From NCBI GenBank assembly GCA_009784235.1, contig WRCC01000003.1, forward strand, positions 72,984 to 136,983: a stretch of 64,000 nt of DNA, written 5' to 3'. This document shows positions 3,940 through 31,082 of this stretch, in pieces. Every line of letters begins with the position of its first letter. Within the stretch, counting starts at the first letter, position 1. The notes beneath the pieces were generated by a model. It saw nothing but the letters and a program-made list of their open reading frames with translations, did not search any database and had not been told where the DNA came from. Source of the stretch: Alphaproteobacteria bacterium (GTDB lineage Bacteria; Pseudomonadota; Alphaproteobacteria; Rs-D84). A program made the position numbers and the translations under genes.

Positions 3940-6021
3940 TTACTTGTTATGTTTTTTAATAACATCTTCGACTACGTTCGTCGGCACTTCGGAATAATGC
4001 GACAATTCCATATATGGATTGGCGCGACCTTGTGACAATGAACGCAATGTTTTGATATACCCGAACAGATTGGCCAGCGGGACATAGGCGTCGATAACCT
4101 GTGCGCCAAATTCCATTTTCATCCCGTTGATTTGACCGCGGCGGGAATTCAAATCACCAATGATGTCGCCTGTGTATTCTTCGGGCGTATTGACCGACAA
4201 TTTCATAATCGGTTCCAGCAACTTTGGTTTGGATTCCTGCATCGCTTCGCGGAATGCGGCGCGTGCGGCTATTTCAAAGCACAGAACGTTCGAATCGACT
4301 TCGTGATATTTTCCGTCAATCAACGTTGCCTTGAAATCTACGGTCGGATATCCCAACAAAGTTCCGGTATTCTGAGCCAAACGCAGCCCTTTTTCAACAC
4401 CCGGGATATATTCGCGCGGAACTGCGCCACCGACAATTTTGTTTTCGAATTCATAACCGGAACCTGGTTCCAATGGTTCAAATTCAATTTTAACCTGGGC
4501 ATATTGACCGGAACCACCAGATTGCTTTTTATGCGTGTAATCTTTGGATATCGGACGGCCGAATGCTTCGCGATATGCAATGCGTGGTTCGCCAATGTTT
4601 GCTTCGACCTTGAATTCGCGGAACAAACGGTCAACCAGAATTTCCAAGTGCAATTCACCGACACCCGCCAAAATTGTTTGGCCGGATTCTTGGTCAACAG
4701 ACACGCGGAACGATGGGTCTTCTTTGGCCAATGCTTGCAGTCCCAGCGCCATTTTTTCAATGTCCGCTTTTGCTTTTGGTTCAATCGCCAATTGCATAAC
4801 CGGCTCTGGAATATGAATGCGTTGCAAGATAACTGGTTTCTGTTCATCACACAAAGTATCACCAGTAATGGTATCTTTCAGACCGACCAGAACAACGATG
4901 TCACCCGCCGATGCTTCTTTGATTTCTTCACGGTTATTTGAATGCATCAACAGCATGCGGCCAACACGTTCACGTTTGTCTTTGGATGAATTATAAACAT
5001 ACGAACCCGACATCAATTTACCCGAGAAAATACGAATAAACATAATGTTTCCAACATACGGGTCGTTTGCGATTTTGAACGCCAGCGCGCTGAACGGTTC
5101 GGTCGCGTCCGCATGACGAACTTCTTCGGTTTCGCCGTCCATCTTGACACCCTTGATGGCTTCGATATCCATCGGGGATGGCAAATAATCAACAATCGCG
5201 TCCAACAACGGTTGCACACCAACGTTACGGAATGCGGTACCATTTAATACGGGGTTGAAATTCTGATTAATTGTACCTTGACGGATTAATCTTTTCAGTG
5301 TCGCAACGTCTGGTTTTGTGCCGCCCATGTATGCTTCCATAACTGCATCATCCAGCATAACGACTTCTTCGATTAATTTTTCATGCAGTTCATCCGCTTT
5401 GGCACGCAAGTCTTCTGGGATTTCTGTGATTTTCGGTTCTTTACCAGACCAGTCTTCCCAAACAATCGCACGCATTTCGACAACATCGACAACGCCACGA
5501 TAATCATTTTCTGCGCCAATCGGGAAATTGATAACCAGCGGATTCGCACCCAAACGTTCACGTATCATATCGACACAGCGGAAAAAGTCACCACCGATGC
5601 GGTCCATTTTATTAACAAAGCAAATACGTGGAACCGCGTAACGGTCGGCTTGGCGCCAAACTGTTTCTGTTTGTGGTTGAACACCCGACACGGATTCGAA
5701 TACTGCGACCGCACCGTCAAGCACGCGCAACGAACGTTCGACTTCAATTGTAAAGTCAACGTGTCCCGGTGTGTCAATCAGGTTAATGCGATGGTCGCGC
5801 CAGAAAGTCGTCGTGGCCGCGGATGTAATGGTGATGCCGCGTTCTTGCTCTTGTTCCATCCAGTCCATGGTCGCACCGCCATCATGAACTTCGCCGATTT
5901 TGTATGTTTTTCCGGTAAAGAACAAAATGCGTTCAGACGTCGTTGTTTTTCCGGCGTCAATATGCGCCATAATTCCAACGTTGCGGTACATGTGTAAAGG
6001 TGCGGTTTTTCCAAGAGCCAT
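3940..6021 (-). CDS. fusA: Elongation factor G
   Basis: 693 aa; [16 protein letters not shown]...; lies in the str operon upstream of tuf. Confidence 0.98.
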
Positions 6022-6045
6022 TGTTTTAAATCCTGTACTTTAATT

Positions 6046-6519
6046 TTACCAGCGGAAGTGTGCGAATGCTTTGTTCGCTTCTGCCATTTTGTGTGTGTCA
6101 ATTTTTTTCTTGAATGCGTTGCCGGTGTTATTCAGTGCATCACGCAATTCAGCAAATAATCTTTCTTCCATACTACGTTCGCCGCGTTTGCGCGCAAACA
6201 TGATAATCCAACGCAGGGCCAAAGTCTGTTGACGTTCTTTGCGAACTTCGACCGGAACTTGGTATGTGGCACCGCCGACGCGGCGACCTTTGACTTCGAC
6301 GCTTGGTTTGATTGCATCAATTGCATCCAAGAACGCGACCAGTTCATTACCGTCTTTGGCGACCTTTTTCAATCTTTCCATTGCGCCATATACAATACCT
6401 TCGGCGACTTCCTTTTTACCATCCCACATGACAATATTGATGATTTTTGCAACGACCAGATTGTTGTATTTTGAATCTGGCAGAATTTCGCGTTTGATTG
6501 CTCTGTTACGTCTTGACAT
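6046..6519 (-). CDS. rpsG: 30S ribosomal protein S7
   Basis: 157 aa; [20 protein letters not shown]...; a GGAA ribosome-binding site sits upstream. Confidence 0.97.
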
Positions 6520-23358: not shown

Positions 23359-23388
23359 TAAACCCGCATTGCGGGTTTAATTTTTTTT
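23358..23388. terminator. Bidirectional rho-independent terminator
   Basis: aaaaaa-ttaaacccgcattgcgggtttaa-tttttttt. Confidence 0.8.
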
Positions 23389-23607
23389 CGGGTCTTCAAT
23401 ATTAGCAAGTGAATAAAGCACCGATGATATTAATGATTGATACGGAACGTGTTGGGCGTCGGCCAATTCTTTGATTTTTTCCAAAACCGGTTTCGGAATA
23501 CGCATATTGATAACTGAATCAGAACGATTAAATGCGCGATAAGCCGCATATTCTTTCAGCAATGAATCAATGTTCATAACGAACAACTGCTGCATTACAT
23601 TCGGCAT
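23377..23607 (-). CDS. RHH (CopG/BrnA-like) antitoxin-type protein with no recognisable partner toxin. The ATG is at 23607; the ORF track starts at a GTG at 23628.
   Basis: NMRIPKPVLEKIKELADAQHVPYQSLISSVLYSLA matches the BrnA/COG3514-type ribbon-helix-helix pattern (RLP..L..lK..A...GIPYQ.LI...L). Confidence 0.5.
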   Translation of the reverse strand: MPNVMQQLFVMNIDSLLKEYAAYRAFNRSDSVINMRIPKPVLEKIKELADAQHVPYQSLISSVLYSLANIEDPKKN

Positions 23608-25249: not shown

Positions 25250-25699
25250 ATGAAAAAACTTTTTATATTTTTCACGCTGCTTATTTTTTGCGCCAGCGCG
25301 CACGCCGCACAAAAACGTATTTCCAAAAATACAATCGCAGACCCAGTTCACGCAACGGTAACTTATATAATCGATGGCGATACTTTTTCGGCGATGGTAA
25401 TTTTACGCGAAAACATTGAAATATCCGTCCGCGTCCGGTTTATAAATATCGACGCACCAGAATTATCCGGCGAATGCGAATCTGAAATCGTGGCGGCGTT
25501 CGCCGCCAAAGACCGGTTAGCGGAATTAATTCCCATCGGCGCCCCCGTTAAATTATTATCCGTCAAAGACGATAAATACCTGGGCCGAATCAACGCACAC
25601 GTCATTGATGCCAACGGTCGCGATGTTGGTGAAATAATGATGGCCGAAGGCCATGCCGTACCGTACGCCGGCGGCAAGCGTATAAATTGGAGTAAATAA
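25250..25699 (+). CDS. Secreted thermonuclease (staphylococcal-nuclease/SNase-like)
   Basis: Signal peptide MKKLFIFFTLLIFCASAHA, then the SNase pattern ...YIIDGDTF...VRFINIDAPE... and C-terminal GRINAHV...MMAEGHAV. Confidence 0.72.
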   Translation: MKKLFIFFTLLIFCASAHAAQKRISKNTIADPVHATVTYIIDGDTFSAMVILRENIEISVRVRFINIDAPELSGECESEIVAAFAAKDRLAELIPIGAPVKLLSVKDDKYLGRINAHVIDANGRDVGEIMMAEGHAVPYAGGKRINWSK

Positions 25700-26339: not shown

Positions 26340-26999
26340 TCAAGCTTTAATAAAAAATCGTAGATTCTGCGCAATCGTCGGTCGTGCCTTTTGTACCAAC
26401 CTGTATGCAATTTCCATAATAAACATGCTTTGAATATCAAACATCAGCATACCCGAAAAATCATCCGGCATGGTATCCAGCATTCCAAAAATCCGACCCG
26501 CGACATCGTCTGCATCCGCGCGGCCACCCACATCACGAATAATAATTCCGTCACTGCGTATTTGGGCCAAATTTGTCCATATATCCAACCAATCGAGCGG
26601 TTCGGTCTTTTGCAAATCAATTATAAAAAATAATTTTTTTCCGAAAAACAAGTCGTCGCGCACCGGCATTAATACCGGTACCAGTTCCACCGGACGACCC
26701 ACCACGGCAACACCGGCGGCGCCCCGACGCAAAACAGAGCTTATCTTTTCAGCCAAATCCAGCGCAACCGCATCCGATTTTTTCTTGGCCGATTTGACTT
26801 CGGCGATTAATTCCAGTGGCGACCGTTCCAGCCAGGGCCAAATAGTCGGCACATTTACATCATCCACCAAGACGTATTTAGTATCAATTTTAATTGCGCG
26901 CGTCGCGGCCGCGACTAAATCTGATGCATCACGCGCACCGATTGCAGACACATCTGCATGCCGCCATATTTCAGACAAAGTAGCGCTGTAATCAATCAT
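26340..26999 (-). CDS. Hypothetical protein (220 aa from MIDYSATL...). The ORF-track extension to 27212 is probably untranslated.
   Basis: Codon usage is consistent with its neighbours. It is divergent from 27046..28047 with only a ~46-bp spacer. I recognised no domain. Confidence 0.45.
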   Translation of the reverse strand: MIDYSATLSEIWRHADVSAIGARDASDLVAAATRAIKIDTKYVLVDDVNVPTIWPWLERSPLELIAEVKSAKKKSDAVALDLAEKISSVLRRGAAGVAVVGRPVELVPVLMPVRDDLFFGKKLFFIIDLQKTEPLDWLDIWTNLAQIRSDGIIIRDVGGRADADDVAGRIFGMLDTMPDDFSGMLMFDIQSMFIMEIAYRLVQKARPTIAQNLRFFIKA

Positions 27000-27045
27000 A
27001 ATACCGATTGTATCATAATATGTCAGTGTGCTATAATTATTTTTG

Positions 27046-28047
27046 ATGAAACGAAATATCGATAAATTTTTGCTGGGTCTTTTATGGGCGATTGCGCTGT
27101 TACTGGCGGCCAGCTTTTGGTTCGATATCCGTTTCGGGTTTAATATTTTTGCGCGCGCACATTGGCGGTATCTGGCGAATATCCAGACCACTGATGCACC
27201 GGTCAGCACCACATTCTATGTATCTCTGGTAATATTCACATTATTGTTGCCAATTGGGCTTTATTTGATATCACAGCCGTATCGCCGGATTCGCGCACGA
27301 CGCACCGTGCATTCAATAACACCAGATGCAGATTTGAATTATCGTGATTCACATACACCGTTGGCAGTATTGAATGCCCAGCCACCAACACCAATTACAC
27401 CGCCTGCCGCACCAGCGCCAGTTCGCCCACCAGAATTAAAAGTCCCACCGCATTTGCAACACAATATCATTCCGCAGAATCACAACGTGGCGATTGCGAC
27501 ACATGATGAACCACAAACAACTGAAATTCATCGTGACGTTTCCCACATAAAAAAAATAATATCCGACGCTGGATACATTATAAAGAAGTCGCCCAGCATT
27601 GGTGGCACGCGTCCTGACATCTGGGCGGCTGGTTCGGATGAAACCCTGATTGTCGGATTGGTTTGCGACGCGCGCGGCAAAATTGTTGTCAGCGAGGGCG
27701 GCGCATCAATGTGGAAATCGGATACTGATGGTGAATTCGAATCGCCAGTGTGGAAATTGTCGGGCATGGTTAACAAACTGCGTGCAACTTTTGATGAAAC
27801 ATTGGAAGATGATATAAAGGTAACAATTCACGCGTTCGTTGTAATGGATGGCGGCGAAATCGAAAATACCGAAACAGTCCGACCAATCTGGGATGCGTTT
27901 GATATAAGCGTATTCAATTCGCCAAACGCGTTGGCTGAATTTATGAAATCGAATCGTAACCGTGTATTACCAGAATCCGAAGCCGAAGATTTCGAAGCAT
28001 ATTCTGAATACATAGACACAGTTGGTGAATACTTTAACAGCCAGTAA
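27046..28047 (+). CDS. Membrane-anchored protein: two N-terminal TM helices, a Pro-rich linker, and a C-terminal NERD / PD-(D/E)xK-like nuclease-fold domain
   Basis: TM segments FLLGLLWAIALLLAASFWF and FYVSLVIFTLLLPIGLYLI. The linker reads PPTPITPPAAPAPVRPPELKVPP. The C-terminal region IISDAGYIIKKSPSIGGTRPDIWAAGSDETLIVGLVCDARGKIV resembles NERD. The first gene of the cassette has a TTG/ATG start at 27043/27046. Confidence 0.45.
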   Translation: MKRNIDKFLLGLLWAIALLLAASFWFDIRFGFNIFARAHWRYLANIQTTDAPVSTTFYVSLVIFTLLLPIGLYLISQPYRRIRARRTVHSITPDADLNYRDSHTPLAVLNAQPPTPITPPAAPAPVRPPELKVPPHLQHNIIPQNHNVAIATHDEPQTTEIHRDVSHIKKIISDAGYIIKKSPSIGGTRPDIWAAGSDETLIVGLVCDARGKIVVSEGGASMWKSDTDGEFESPVWKLSGMVNKLRATFDETLEDDIKVTIHAFVVMDGGEIENTETVRPIWDAFDISVFNSPNALAEFMKSNRNRVLPESEAEDFEAYSEYIDTVGEYFNSQ

Positions 28048-28052
28048 TAAAA

Positions 28053-28553
28053 ATGACAAAAACAGATGCGGAACGCCGCCTCGCAGATTTGATGATGGAC
28101 GATGTGCCGGTAATGGAAATTCCGGCGCGAATGGCCACGGTTCCATCCGATTGGTTCGAACGGTTTAAAAAAGTCCGGCGCGAATTTATGGAATCATTGT
28201 CTGATTCAATCCAAGAATTATCATTCTTGAATTTATCCCAAGAAACATTTATGCAATTGCTGATGGGACGCGCGATTCCGGAAAATTTGTCGCTTCGTTG
28301 GCGGCGACCACTGGAATACGGCGGCGAATTGGATATAAAAAATATGTTTATGTGTCCACGGTTTCCATACGGTCAAAATATGGACCGGTTTATTGCTGAA
28401 CAATCCGGCAATAATGTTTTATGGATTCCAAATCCGGCAAAAAAAATATATGTTCCGGCGCGATTACTGGGCGGTGGTCCGGGCGGCAATGCGACCAGTG
28501 ACCGATTGGCCGCACTGGCCGCGCAGTTTGCCGCAGACAGGGGAATGATATGA
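28053..28553 (+). CDS. Hypothetical cytoplasmic protein (166 aa), second gene of the cassette
   Basis: It follows the previous stop by 6 nt and overlaps the next gene through an ATGA overlap. A weak, degenerate HNH-like stretch (RRPLEYGGELDIKNMFMCP) is the only hint of function. Confidence 0.4.
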   Translation: MTKTDAERRLADLMMDDVPVMEIPARMATVPSDWFERFKKVRREFMESLSDSIQELSFLNLSQETFMQLLMGRAIPENLSLRWRRPLEYGGELDIKNMFMCPRFPYGQNMDRFIAEQSGNNVLWIPNPAKKIYVPARLLGGGPGGNATSDRLAALAAQFAADRGMI

Positions 28554-28993
28554 CACGCGAAGAATTCATTTCCGAATTAAAAAATCGCGGCGCGATTTTG
28601 ATGCCGACTGTATCAGACCGTGCGATTGAACTGGTTCAAAATGGATTACAGACAATGCGTGCGGCGATGATGTCGCTGGGACTGATTGACATTTATAAAA
28701 CCATCGGTGGTGGGATGATATTGGGCGATGCGAATATTTTCGGGCCGGAAAAAATTGACCGCGTATCCGCGAATTATGAATTGCCTGATATTGTGCAGAT
28801 TAATCGCGATGTGGCGAATATCGGGGCGCTGCGCGGCAAAACCATCATCGGCCGCAACCAAATGTTTTGGTTTGCATTTGATGCATTTGGAAATTTTTAT
28901 ATGCTGGATATTTTGAATTTTCGTATTCTTCGTAAATATGAAAATGACCCGTATCGCGCGATAATTGATTGTTTGGCGGTTGGTAAAATTTAA
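28550..28993 (+). CDS. SUKH / SMI1-KNR4-like putative immunity protein (147 aa)
   Basis: IGGGMILGDANIFGPEKI ... MFWFAFDAFGNFYMLDI resembles the SUKH core (...NGG... / ...FA.D..GN.Y..D...). The start has an ATGA overlap with the preceding gene. Confidence 0.4.
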   Translation: MTREEFISELKNRGAILMPTVSDRAIELVQNGLQTMRAAMMSLGLIDIYKTIGGGMILGDANIFGPEKIDRVSANYELPDIVQINRDVANIGALRGKTIIGRNQMFWFAFDAFGNFYMLDILNFRILRKYENDPYRAIIDCLAVGKI

Positions 28994-29200
28994 ATGAAAA
29001 AAATATCAATCACAATTTCCGGACACAGAACATCTCTGACACTTGAATCCGAATTCATTGATGCGCTACGTCAAATTGCCGCATCACAGAAAAAATCCAT
29101 TGCCGGATTGGTCCAAGAAATTGATGCAAATCGCGCCCGTACGACTAATCTTTCTTCGGCCGTCCGAATCTATATACTGCGATACTTAACAATAAAATAA
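28994..29200 (+). CDS. Ribbon-helix-helix (RHH_4-type) small DNA-binding protein
   Basis: KKISITISGHRTSLTLESEFIDALRQIAASQKKSIAGLVQEID fits the RHH_4 pattern (S.T..GH.TSL.LE..FW.AL..IA). Its ATG immediately follows the previous stop. The 3' end overlaps the convergent ybeY-lnt gene by ~56 bp. Confidence 0.55.
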   Translation: MKKISITISGHRTSLTLESEFIDALRQIAASQKKSIAGLVQEIDANRARTTNLSSAVRIYILRYLTIK

Positions 29201-31082
29201 TCGCCATCATCCAATTGCGGCCAATGATGCGATATGGCGTGATGCGCGATGCACCGACGGTGCCGTCCAACGTGCCCGCAACACCAATTGGCAAACTGGA
29301 TATGATTGTACCATCTGCGGCGACAAATGCGCTGATACCCGAATAATTCGCGCGAATAACGGGCACCCCAGATTCAATTGCATGCCGACGCGTCATATCC
29401 AAGTGCTGATACGGACCGGGCGTCCGACCAAACCAGGTATCGTTTGTAATATTTATAATCATATTCGGCCGGGCGCCACGCGGCACCAACGAATCTGAAA
29501 AAATAATTTCATAACAAATTGCCGGTGAAAATGTAAAATCATTTATATTGATAACTTCCGGTCCATCGCCCCGTGACATTTCGCCGGGTGTTGGAACCAG
29601 TCCGCCCAGCGGGCCATATTCGCCAAACGGAACCAAATGCGATTTATGATATATATGATTAATTGTACCGGTCGCGTCTGCGACAATCATGGAATTGTAA
29701 AACTGTGCATCGCGAATGTTTCGCGATTCTGGAACACGCACAGTATTAACGCCCGCAATAACAGTCGCATTCAATTCGCGCGCTGGTGCAAAATCAACCA
29801 AAACATTTCCATCCATATCAAACGGTATCAAAATCGGATACGCTGTTTCCGGCCAGATTATTATATCTGGATTTCCATCGCCCGTTCGACTCAATTCCAC
29901 CAACTGCCTAACAGCTTCGTCGACTGCCTCGCGATTGATTTTAAATGATTGGCCCGCCGCCGGTTGAATAATTCTGATGATTGGCGATTCAGGTGCTGGT
30001 AATTTATTAATTGCATGAATATTATAATGACCATATCCGATACCGATAATTAGCAATGGAACAAAAAGCGCAAACGACCATTTGTATTTTTTTGGATTCG
30101 TGCATGCTGCAATTAATCCAATAATTATAAACGTTAATCCCAATGCGCCCCACAGAGCCATGCTGTTTGATAGTGCCGGCCATGGCATTGTGATATTCGC
30201 AATCGGATTCCATGGAAACCCAGTCAAAAGCCATTCGCGCAACCATAAAACGAAAGTCCATGCCGCTGCGAATATAATCGGCCGGTACCAATTATTCACA
30301 CCCGTCCACTTGGTCAATAAAAACGGCAATGCAAAAACTATTCCACCAAACAACGCGATTCCAATAACGCCCGGCGCGGTCCAAATTGCAAACTGCGCCG
30401 CCAATTCCGGCACAACATATATAGAATTCAAAACCCACCAGAAATTTGCCACAGCGTACCCGGCGCCAAATGCAAAAGGCAATAAATATGATTTTTTCCG
30501 CGTGGAAATAATCGCATATGCACCACCGATTCCAATCAGCGTCGCCGGCCACAAATAAAACGGTGCGAACCCAAGTGATGCGATGACACCGCATAAAAAT
30601 GTCAATACTGGCAAATAATATTTACCACGAATTTCGGTTTTATACGGGTCCCCTATTCCCAATTTCTTTAAAATCTTTGATTCCAACGATTCCATTTTAT
30701 CTGCATCCGAATCATTTATATGGTCGTGCCCCAGCAAATGCAAAACACCGTGAACAACCATATGCGACGCATGCGCAATAAAATCATTTGGCAATTCACG
30801 CATAACTGTATCAAACGAAATAAATATATCGCCCAGCAATTCCGAATCGCCGGTTTCAAACGACAAGACATTTGTCGGCGCATCTTTCCCGCGATATTTT
30901 TTATTTAATTCTTGTATTTCAGAATCATTGGTCAATATAATGGAAACTTCCCCGTCGCCATTCGCGCCTGTGGCACGAATCGCGGTATCCACGATTTTAT
31001 CAAAATCGATTTTATGTTTTTCCCATCGCGGGTCGTTAATTGTGATGAAAACTTTTATGGACATGCTGAAATCATAAATCAT
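29145..31082 (-). CDS. ybeY-lnt: Single ORF encoding an N-terminal YbeY endoribonuclease domain fused in frame to apolipoprotein N-acyltransferase (Lnt)
   Basis: The first ~155 aa carry the YbeY zinc motif HGVLHLLGHDH and end ...LGIGDPYKTEIRGKY. Lnt TM1 follows with no stop codon (YLPVLTFLCGVIASLGFAPFYLW...). The C-terminus is the Lnt nitrilase-type domain (WPETAYP, ICYE, NDTWFG). Confidence 0.85.
   Translation of the reverse strand: MIYDFSMSIKVFITINDPRWEKHKIDFDKIVDTAIRATGANGDGEVSIILTNDSEIQELNKKYRGKDAPTNVLSFETGDSELLGDIFISFDTVMRELPNDFIAHASHMVVHGVLHLLGHDHINDSDADKMESLESKILKKLGIGDPYKTEIRGKYYLPVLTFLCGVIASLGFAPFYLWPATLIGIGGAYAIISTRKKSYLLPFAFGAGYAVANFWWVLNSIYVVPELAAQFAIWTAPGVIGIALFGGIVFALPFLLTKWTGVNNWYRPIIFAAAWTFVLWLREWLLTGFPWNPIANITMPWPALSNSMALWGALGLTFIIIGLIAACTNPKKYKWSFALFVPLLIIGIGYGHYNIHAINKLPAPESPIIRIIQPAAGQSFKINREAVDEAVRQLVELSRTGDGNPDIIIWPETAYPILIPFDMDGNVLVDFAPARELNATVIAGVNTVRVPESRNIRDAQFYNSMIVADATGTINHIYHKSHLVPFGEYGPLGGLVPTPGEMSRGDGPEVININDFTFSPAICYEIIFSDSLVPRGARPNMIINITNDTWFGRTPGPYQHLDMTRRHAIESGVPVIRANYSGISAFVAADGTIISSLPIGVAGTLDGTVGASRITPYRIIGRNWMMAIILLLSIAVYRFGRPKKD

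Follow-up and report, generated by a model that had tools for sequence, protein, structure and literature searches.

The subject of this analysis is a block of five genes in a 64,000-nucleotide (nt) stretch of contig WRCC01000003.1 (assembly GCA_009784235.1), from an alphaproteobacterium of the order Rs-D84; this stretch is referred to below as the window, and coordinates are window positions unless another locus is named. Four of the genes, designated g1 to g4, lie on the plus strand: g1 (27046-28047) encodes a membrane-tethered protein of 333 amino acids (aa) with a domain of the restriction endonuclease (REase) fold; g2 (28053-28553) a cytoplasmic protein of 166 aa with a putative HNH-like core that lacks the catalytic His; g3 (28550-28993) a divergent SUKH (SMI1/KNR4, YrhA-like) protein of 147 aa; and g4 (28994-29200) a 68-aa ribbon-helix-helix (RHH) protein of the RHH_4 family, the probable regulator of the operon. 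The fifth gene, up219 (26340-26999, minus strand), is divergently oriented and encodes a soluble 219-aa protein of no recognisable family, a conserved partner of the operon. The 46 bp that separate up219 from g1 (27000-27045) carry two extended -10 boxes and make up a putative control region for the divergent genes. At the other end of the block, a fused ybeY-lnt gene (29145-31082, minus strand) converges on g4 and overlaps its 3' end by 56 nt (29145-29200).

A first-pass annotation of this DNA had described g1 to g4 as a candidate toxin/immunity or defence-type module, and its account of the layout holds almost throughout: the four tightly coupled plus-strand open reading frames (ORFs) are all present where it placed them, and so are the ATGA overlap of g2 and g3, the 0-nt junction of g3 and g4, the divergent spacer (put at ~46 bp), the convergent overlap with ybeY-lnt (put at ~56 bp) and the housekeeping surroundings (efp and ybeY-lnt, to which tolB and ftsK can be added). 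The g1-g2 junction is 5 nt rather than 6, and the upstream protein, rightly called uncharacterised, is 219 rather than 220 aa long. An alternative start for g1 is a TTG at 27043; translation more likely begins at the ATG, given that g1 homologs start with MK and that the public gene call also specifies 333 aa. An AGGGGA Shine-Dalgarno sequence precedes the ATGA overlap by which g3 is translationally coupled to g2. All four genes are genuine, and not ORFs that arose by chance, since they have many homologs (about 90 to more than 150 per gene), have ratios of nonsynonymous to synonymous substitution rates (dN/dS) of 0.08-0.17, and keep their order in the loci of 80 species. The base composition of the cassette matches that of its flanks, and no integrase or transposase families were found among the called genes around it.

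A g2 profile finds relatives in 211 GTDB species-representative genomes, and synteny was assessed in the 80 best loci. All 80 of these fetched loci carry g1-g2-g3-g4, co-localised in the same order and orientation, with g2 and g3 occurring together throughout, and each locus has a single copy of the block; the same arrangement is seen in the most distant homologs that were found for g1 and g3 (~28% and 41% identical). The median junctions, in block order, are 43 (up219/g1), -1, 9.5, 1 and 4 nt. In most of the 80 loci ybeY-lnt lies convergently downstream; in at least 8 it is 1.7-4.4 kb away, and in locus L022 g4 is found 3 kb from g3, still beside ybeY-lnt. The upstream neighbour differs: it is efp in the window and trmB in loci L084 and L085, those of the most distant homologs. 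The listed hosts are all metagenome-assembled genomes of uncultured Alphaproteobacteria from gut, rumen or termite, Candidatus Enterousia among them; two of the records are of complete chromosomes (0.72 and 0.96 Mb), and some are labelled 'Muribaculaceae' or simply 'bacterium'. The genomes of the order Rs-D84 are uniformly reduced, most of them to less than 1 Mb; respiration and a large part of central metabolism are missing from its members, which probably depend on partners (PMC12306168).

Sequence evolution within the cassette is like that of housekeeping genes. With dS near saturation, the dN/dS values are approximate: 0.083 for g2, 0.104 for g3, 0.141 for g4, 0.165 for g1 and 0.174 for up219, with 0.132 for ybeY-lnt as a comparison. 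The mean pairwise identities are 0.60 (g2), 0.54 (g3), 0.58 (g4) and 0.38 (g1), against 0.57 for ybeY-lnt. Pairwise distances in the cassette correlate with those of ybeY-lnt. No relatives of g1, g2 or g3 were found among 72,556 plasmid records and none of g2 among 50,697 phage records, and the PADLOC models, which the first-pass annotation had suggested as a check, have no match in the cassette. Nothing accessory, patchy or mobile is seen in its distribution: its position is fixed in the 80 loci and also in the most distant homologs. Because synteny is fixed, selection purifying, divergence in step with that of ybeY-lnt and plasmid and phage relatives lacking, the cassette looks like a set of vertically inherited core genes of Rs-D84 and not like a mobile toxin/immunity, toxin-antitoxin (TA) or defence cassette.

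Do the genes of the block also evolve together? Mirror-tree partial correlations, which compare the residual rates after controlling for ybeY-lnt, link up219, g1, g3 and g2 (partial r 0.39-0.61): the highest value is for up219 and g1 (0.61), followed by up219 and g3 (0.56), g1 and g3 (0.50), and g2 and g3 (0.47). The values for g4 against the others (0.10-0.30) indicate little residual co-evolution. The correlated rates hint at a functional coupling of up219, g1, g2 and g3.

The g1 protein has two hydrophobic segments (residues ~8-26 and 57-75) with a conserved loop between them, a Pro-rich linker (~96-160; 21.5% Pro over residues 96-160) and a C-terminal domain of the REase fold (~160-333; nt 27523-28047). 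The two transmembrane (TM) helices and the linker had been recognised in the first-pass annotation. A near-invariant RPP(R/E)L motif occupies residues 127-131 of the linker, and the positive-inside rule suggests that the C-terminal domain faces the cytoplasm. That domain had been called NERD- or PD-(D/E)xK-like. The fold stands, for the alpha-beta-beta-beta-alpha-beta core of the restriction endonucleases is there; the canonical nuclease signature is missing from the family. The window protein matches nothing in Pfam, NCBIfam or PADLOC, the family profile has no significant match to PDB sequences, the NERD Pfam model picks up just one of 33 family members (E 0.14), and the family goes unrecognised by the nuclease models of Pfam. 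Among 85 members there is no conserved catalytic Asp in β2 with a (D/E)xK in β3. The motif quoted in support of the nuclease assignment, 'RPDIWAAG...CDARGK', is present in the window protein and is not a property of the family: Asp191 (of 'RPD') is found in 14 of the 85 members, position 201, at which the Lys of (D/E)xK would be expected, is Leu, Val or Ile, and the 'CDARGK' stretch sits within an insertion of ~25 residues that is restricted to the closest subclade. The only conserved charged residues of g1 are K180, E199 and D324. In the model of the domain, E199 is at the β2-β3 turn and K180 near the end of β1, which would put them at opposite ends of the sheet.

Two further observations concern g1. 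The insertion just mentioned is a beta-hairpin (residues ~208-233; nt 27667-27744) with a conserved (E/D)GGxSxW motif; it is confined to the termite-gut subclade nearest the window and absent from the Enterousia-type homologs. In two further public assemblies of the same strain (loci L002 and L003, otherwise 100% identical over ~6 kb), a 2-bp (CT) deletion in codon 190 (~27614-27615) splits g1 into ORFs of 197 and 147 aa; the deletion may be a true frameshift allele or an artefact that the two assemblies have in common.

In g2, a putative HNH-like beta-beta-alpha core spans residues ~79-117 (nt 28287-28403); a Foldseek comparison of g2 with the PDB gave nothing significant. The classical HNH motif reads D-H-x2-P-x3-GG-x5-N-x8-H. 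With it, the g2 sequence R82-[FLW]83-R84-x-P86-x3-G90-G91-x5-N97-x8-[H/Y]106 can be aligned by eye and without gaps; the crucial departure is at position 83, the equivalent, at the end of β1, of the general-base His, which in 120 g2 proteins is Phe (79), Leu (20), Trp (19) or Met (2) and never His. Arg occupies the position of the Asp that precedes the general-base His. N97 is invariant (120/120), D111 is conserved in 100% of the 120 proteins, and position 106 is His in 77 of them (64%) and Tyr in the window protein. Nowhere in the 120 sequences is there a His column with 90% or greater conservation. The remainder of the protein includes a Gly-rich disordered stretch, a conserved GGNATSDRL motif, and a conserved basic surface (R82, R84, R112, K130, K131, R151). 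None of 29 g2 members is matched by an HNH family hidden Markov model (HMM) at E<=1, the window protein has no match in Pfam, NCBIfam or PADLOC, and the family profile none of significance among PDB sequences. Because the motif match is free of gaps and the general-base position is never His, g2 is best read as the descendant of an HNH nuclease that lost its canonical catalytic base. The "weak HNH-like stretch" that the first-pass annotation saw in a small cytoplasmic protein is plausible as a fold; as an HNH nuclease, g2 finds backing neither in the HMMs nor in position 83. (The divergent HNH toxin Rehh, bioRxiv 10.64898/2026.09.22.753552, was entertained as a match to g2 and rejected: Rehh is His-rich and secreted.)

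The assignment of g3 takes a more circuitous route. The window protein has no direct match in Pfam or PADLOC and a weak one to YrhA in NCBIfam (E 0.079); five of 29 family members are matched by SMI1_KNR4, weakly and below the gathering score (best E 0.0044), and a search of PDB sequences with the family profile yields nothing significant. From 1.84 billion representative proteins, this profile retrieves only its own family down to E 1e-10 and then some 35 distant relatives of similar length (E 1e-10 to 1e-3). Twelve of 28 of these distant relatives that were scanned match SMI1_KNR4, SUKH_5 or SUKH_6, and one close relative from outside the family is annotated as a 'YrhA family protein'. The profile-profile probability given by hhalign, 97.8%, is partly circular, the set having been selected by the g3 profile. 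Membership is transitive, by way of the distant relatives that the g3 profile finds; on this sequence evidence g3 is a divergent protein of the SUKH superfamily, as the first-pass annotation had proposed.

With g4 there is no such detour: Pfam RHH_4 (PF13467) matches residues 2-65 of 68 with an E of 4.4e-21 and 75.1 bits (cutoff 25), which is a full-length match above the gathering score, as the RHH_4-type label had predicted. It is the one direct Pfam match among the four window proteins, g1, g2 and g3 having none. The gene is present in 79 of the 80 loci (mean column identity 62%), and directly adjoins g3 in nearly all of them (median 1 nt). A g4 profile search of the PDB retrieves only 3kk4 (BP1543), which is uncharacterised, and a literature search on RHH_4/PF13467 retrieved only unrelated papers. 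Gene callers missed g4 on the source contigs despite its Pfam score, likely owing to the 56-nt convergent overlap with ybeY-lnt (an overlap that reaches 65 nt in other species); in L084 and L085 the gene is called and tagged RHH_4. At the opposite end of the block, up219 occupies the divergent upstream position in 75 of the 80 species loci (median spacer 43 nt), and is linked to the operon as tightly as g1 to g4 are to each other. Searches of Pfam, NCBIfam and PADLOC yield no match for it, nor do those of PDB sequences, even with a family profile.

Nucleotide conservation of the spacer between up219 and g1 extends to species that share no more than ~50% identity in their proteins. In the window, an extended -10 box for g1, TGcTATAAT (27029-27037, plus strand), is located 8 nt before the g1 ATG, and one for up219, TGATACAAT (27015-27007, minus strand), 7 nt from the ATG of that gene. 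In 60 of 69 loci the g1 ATG is preceded by a -10-like hexamer whose end lies 8-10 nt away, the TGn extension is found in 64, and the up219 side has a similar -10 pattern. Because the -10 boxes lie 7-8 nt from each ATG, the g1 and up219 mRNAs would probably be leaderless transcripts from back-to-back promoters. The two boxes make up a palindrome in the Enterousia clade, TATCAY-AAWT-RTGATA, which is exact in 49 of 83 loci, occurs as a single site in each matching locus, and lies within the spacer in the subset of loci whose spacer sequences were inspected; no convincing copy of this Enterousia-type 16-mer can be made out in the window. The palindrome is a candidate operator for an RHH_4 dimer, and it could alternatively be the mere footprint of two symmetric divergent extended -10 promoters. 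(A technical note: scans for intrinsic terminators and for σ70 promoters did no better than with shuffled sequence.)

What might such a block do? The reading that is favoured here, with a probability of roughly 55%, is of a lineage-specific core operon in which degenerate nuclease and immunity folds specify a membrane-associated, non-catalytic complex. The g1 protein would reside in the inner membrane, its non-catalytic REase-like domain held in the cytoplasm by the flexible Pro-rich tether. The "dead" HNH protein g2 and the SUKH protein g3 would retain the type of binding that characterised the ancestral toxin and its immunity protein, and g1, g2 and g3, probably with up219 as the co-regulated partner of the operon, would form a membrane-associated binding or regulatory complex whose ligand might be nucleic acid or protein. 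Repression by g4 of both back-to-back promoters in the 46-bp spacer would make the block autoregulated. How could these genes have been acquired? It is possible, and can be put forward only tentatively, that a polymorphic-toxin cassette comprising two toxins, one of the REase and one of the HNH kind, and a SUKH immunity protein was captured in the common ancestor of Rs-D84, lost catalysis and was domesticated. The membrane-tethered complex would on that account have become indispensable, and the surface by which toxin and immunity protein once met would have been turned to housekeeping use, as a switch for binding or regulation.

Several considerations weigh against the non-catalytic complex. 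Complex formation and autoregulation are argued from domain logic and gene coupling. Fixation in a clade is, taken alone, compatible with an addictive module. The retention by g2 of N97, of D111 and (in 64%) of His106 leaves it conceivable that g2 catalyses in a non-canonical way, and K180, E199 and D324 permit the same thought about g1. The frameshift allele, if real, would imply that g1 is dispensable in some cells at least.

There are also competing explanations. One is a non-canonical membrane nuclease: g1 would use relocated residues (K180, E199, D324) in a housekeeping task, the processing or salvage of DNA or RNA, with g2 and g3 as its regulators or inhibitors. This is doubtful, for the strand order of the model would place E199 and K180 at opposite ends of the sheet, making it unlikely that they share a site, the canonical β2 Asp and β3 ExK positions are hydrophobic or variable, and the Pfam models for NERD and other nucleases pass the family by. 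The toxin/immunity or anti-phage module of the first-pass annotation, in which g1 and/or g2 would be an active toxin, g3 its immunity protein and g4 the autoregulator, and which might be fixed as, for example, an addiction module, is less probable still. The parts are certainly suggestive: a REase fold, an HNH-like fold and a SUKH domain are classic components of polymorphic toxin/immunity systems (PMC3482391), the tight coupling to an RHH gene is as in type II TA operons, and a frameshifted g1 allele is what one would expect of a costly toxin. These parts hardly amount to a weapon, since both nuclease folds lack their canonical catalytic residues family-wide, so that no toxin with an intact active site is to be found here; a Pfam scan reveals no domain for secretion or trafficking, and the g1 domain would, by the positive-inside rule, face the cytoplasm. 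Nor does the module have the habits of one: it occupies a single fixed syntenic position in 80 species, without patchiness, in host genomes of less than 1 Mb; it has no PADLOC match and no plasmid or phage copies; and its dN/dS of 0.08-0.17 is housekeeping-like and not diversifying. In sum, the fold-level interpretation offered in the first pass was largely right, with uneven strength from gene to gene, and the functional interpretation is not supported.

Perhaps, at the other extreme, there is nothing to explain: the genes might be unrelated, their adjacency a matter of frozen order in a slowly rearranging reduced genome, with an ancestral RHH_4 gene that happens to sit beside lineage-specific ORFans. 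For g4 the case is not trivial. Its flanking neighbour ybeY-lnt is also syntenic in most loci, it remains with that neighbour in L022 when parted from g3, RHH_4 has a different partner (DUF4169) in Sinorhizobium and Paracoccus, and g4 shares little residual co-evolution with the other genes of the block. For the block as a whole, frozen order is an unlikely explanation: g1 to g4 have kept overlapping or near-zero junctions in ~80 species, with the genes around them less constant (efp or trmB upstream, ybeY-lnt 1.7-4.4 kb distant in the loci noted above), HNH-like and SUKH folds are a known functional pairing, and the rates of up219, g1, g2 and g3 are correlated.

Why should a block of this kind be of interest? 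The bacteria of Rs-D84 are uncultured and widespread in guts and are thought to depend on partners, and genes that are kept universally in genomes of less than 1 Mb are probably important to these bacteria. Of the five families of the block, four are without annotation in Pfam, NCBIfam, PADLOC or PDB sequences; the block is a new, previously unannotated, clade-wide operon of degenerate conflict-system folds. If it proves true that a toxin/immunity cassette was domesticated here, it would offer a clear example, in bacteria, of core machinery made from the proteins of conflict systems. There is also a lesson for annotation practice: "nuclease fold + SUKH + RHH" is insufficient for calling a defence or toxin system, and distribution and conservation of the active site should be checked as well.

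The neighbourhood (tolB, a secreted SNase-like gene, efp, ybeY-lnt, ftsK, tatA and dnaN are among the genes in it) offers some observations of its own. YbeY, an rRNA maturation RNase, and Lnt, the apolipoprotein N-acyltransferase, are fused in one ORF of 645 aa (29145-31082, minus strand). The best tblastn segment for ybeY-lnt is ~2 kb long in most of the 80 Rs-D84 loci, and the lineage appears to have preserved the fusion, which would anchor YbeY at the membrane. The SNase-like gene (25250-25699, plus strand), between tolB and efp, encodes 149 aa with an N-terminal hydrophobic segment resembling a signal peptide and a weak match to the SNase Pfam model (E 1e-4); it was not seen beside the conserved block in other species. 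Upstream of tolB, at ~23377-23607 on the minus strand (5325-5555 of locus L001), there is a lone 76-aa ORF of the CopG_antitoxin family, and the gene table tags no toxin family on the genes that adjoin it.

Several known systems can be compared with the block. The closest described kind is the pairing of HNH-fold toxins with SUKH (SMI1-KNR4) immunity proteins in polymorphic toxin systems (Zhang et al. 2012, PMC3482391). The likeness is in the arrangement, g2 being followed directly by the translationally coupled g3, with a REase-fold gene alongside; the differences are that the cassette is without a general-base His (0 of 120 g2 proteins), without an N-terminal secretion or trafficking domain or an array of cassettes, and without polymorphism, being syntenic and under strong purifying selection; nothing predicts that it acts as a toxin. 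With the PD-(D/E)xK/NERD-type nucleases (VRR_NUC, NucS, the nuclease domain of Can2), g1 shares the REase fold class; it differs from them in that its triad is not conserved and in its tether of two TM helices and a Pro-rich linker with the RPP(R/E)L motif. Tethers of the ZipA type consist of a TM anchor, a long Pro-rich linker and a globular cytoplasmic binding domain. By analogy, g1 would have the same layout, its C-terminal globular domain being held in the cytoplasm by a flexible Pro-rich linker that leads to a membrane anchor; the resemblance would be one of architecture, without relationship in sequence or fold (the globular domain of g1 is of the REase fold), and would not imply a connection with FtsZ or division. 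Finally, g4 is like other RHH_4 proteins of the Alphaproteobacteria in consisting of the full-length domain and in having the usual size (~68 aa). In Sinorhizobium meliloti and Paracoccus, RHH_4 is immediately preceded by a DUF4169 gene, the two lying next to sspB (as in S. meliloti) or fumC (such DUF4169 + RHH_4 pairs lie at 5682-6222 of locus L086 and 4751-5207 of locus L087). That pair is absent from the Rs-D84 arrangement, in which g4 is instead the last gene of the g1-g3 operon.

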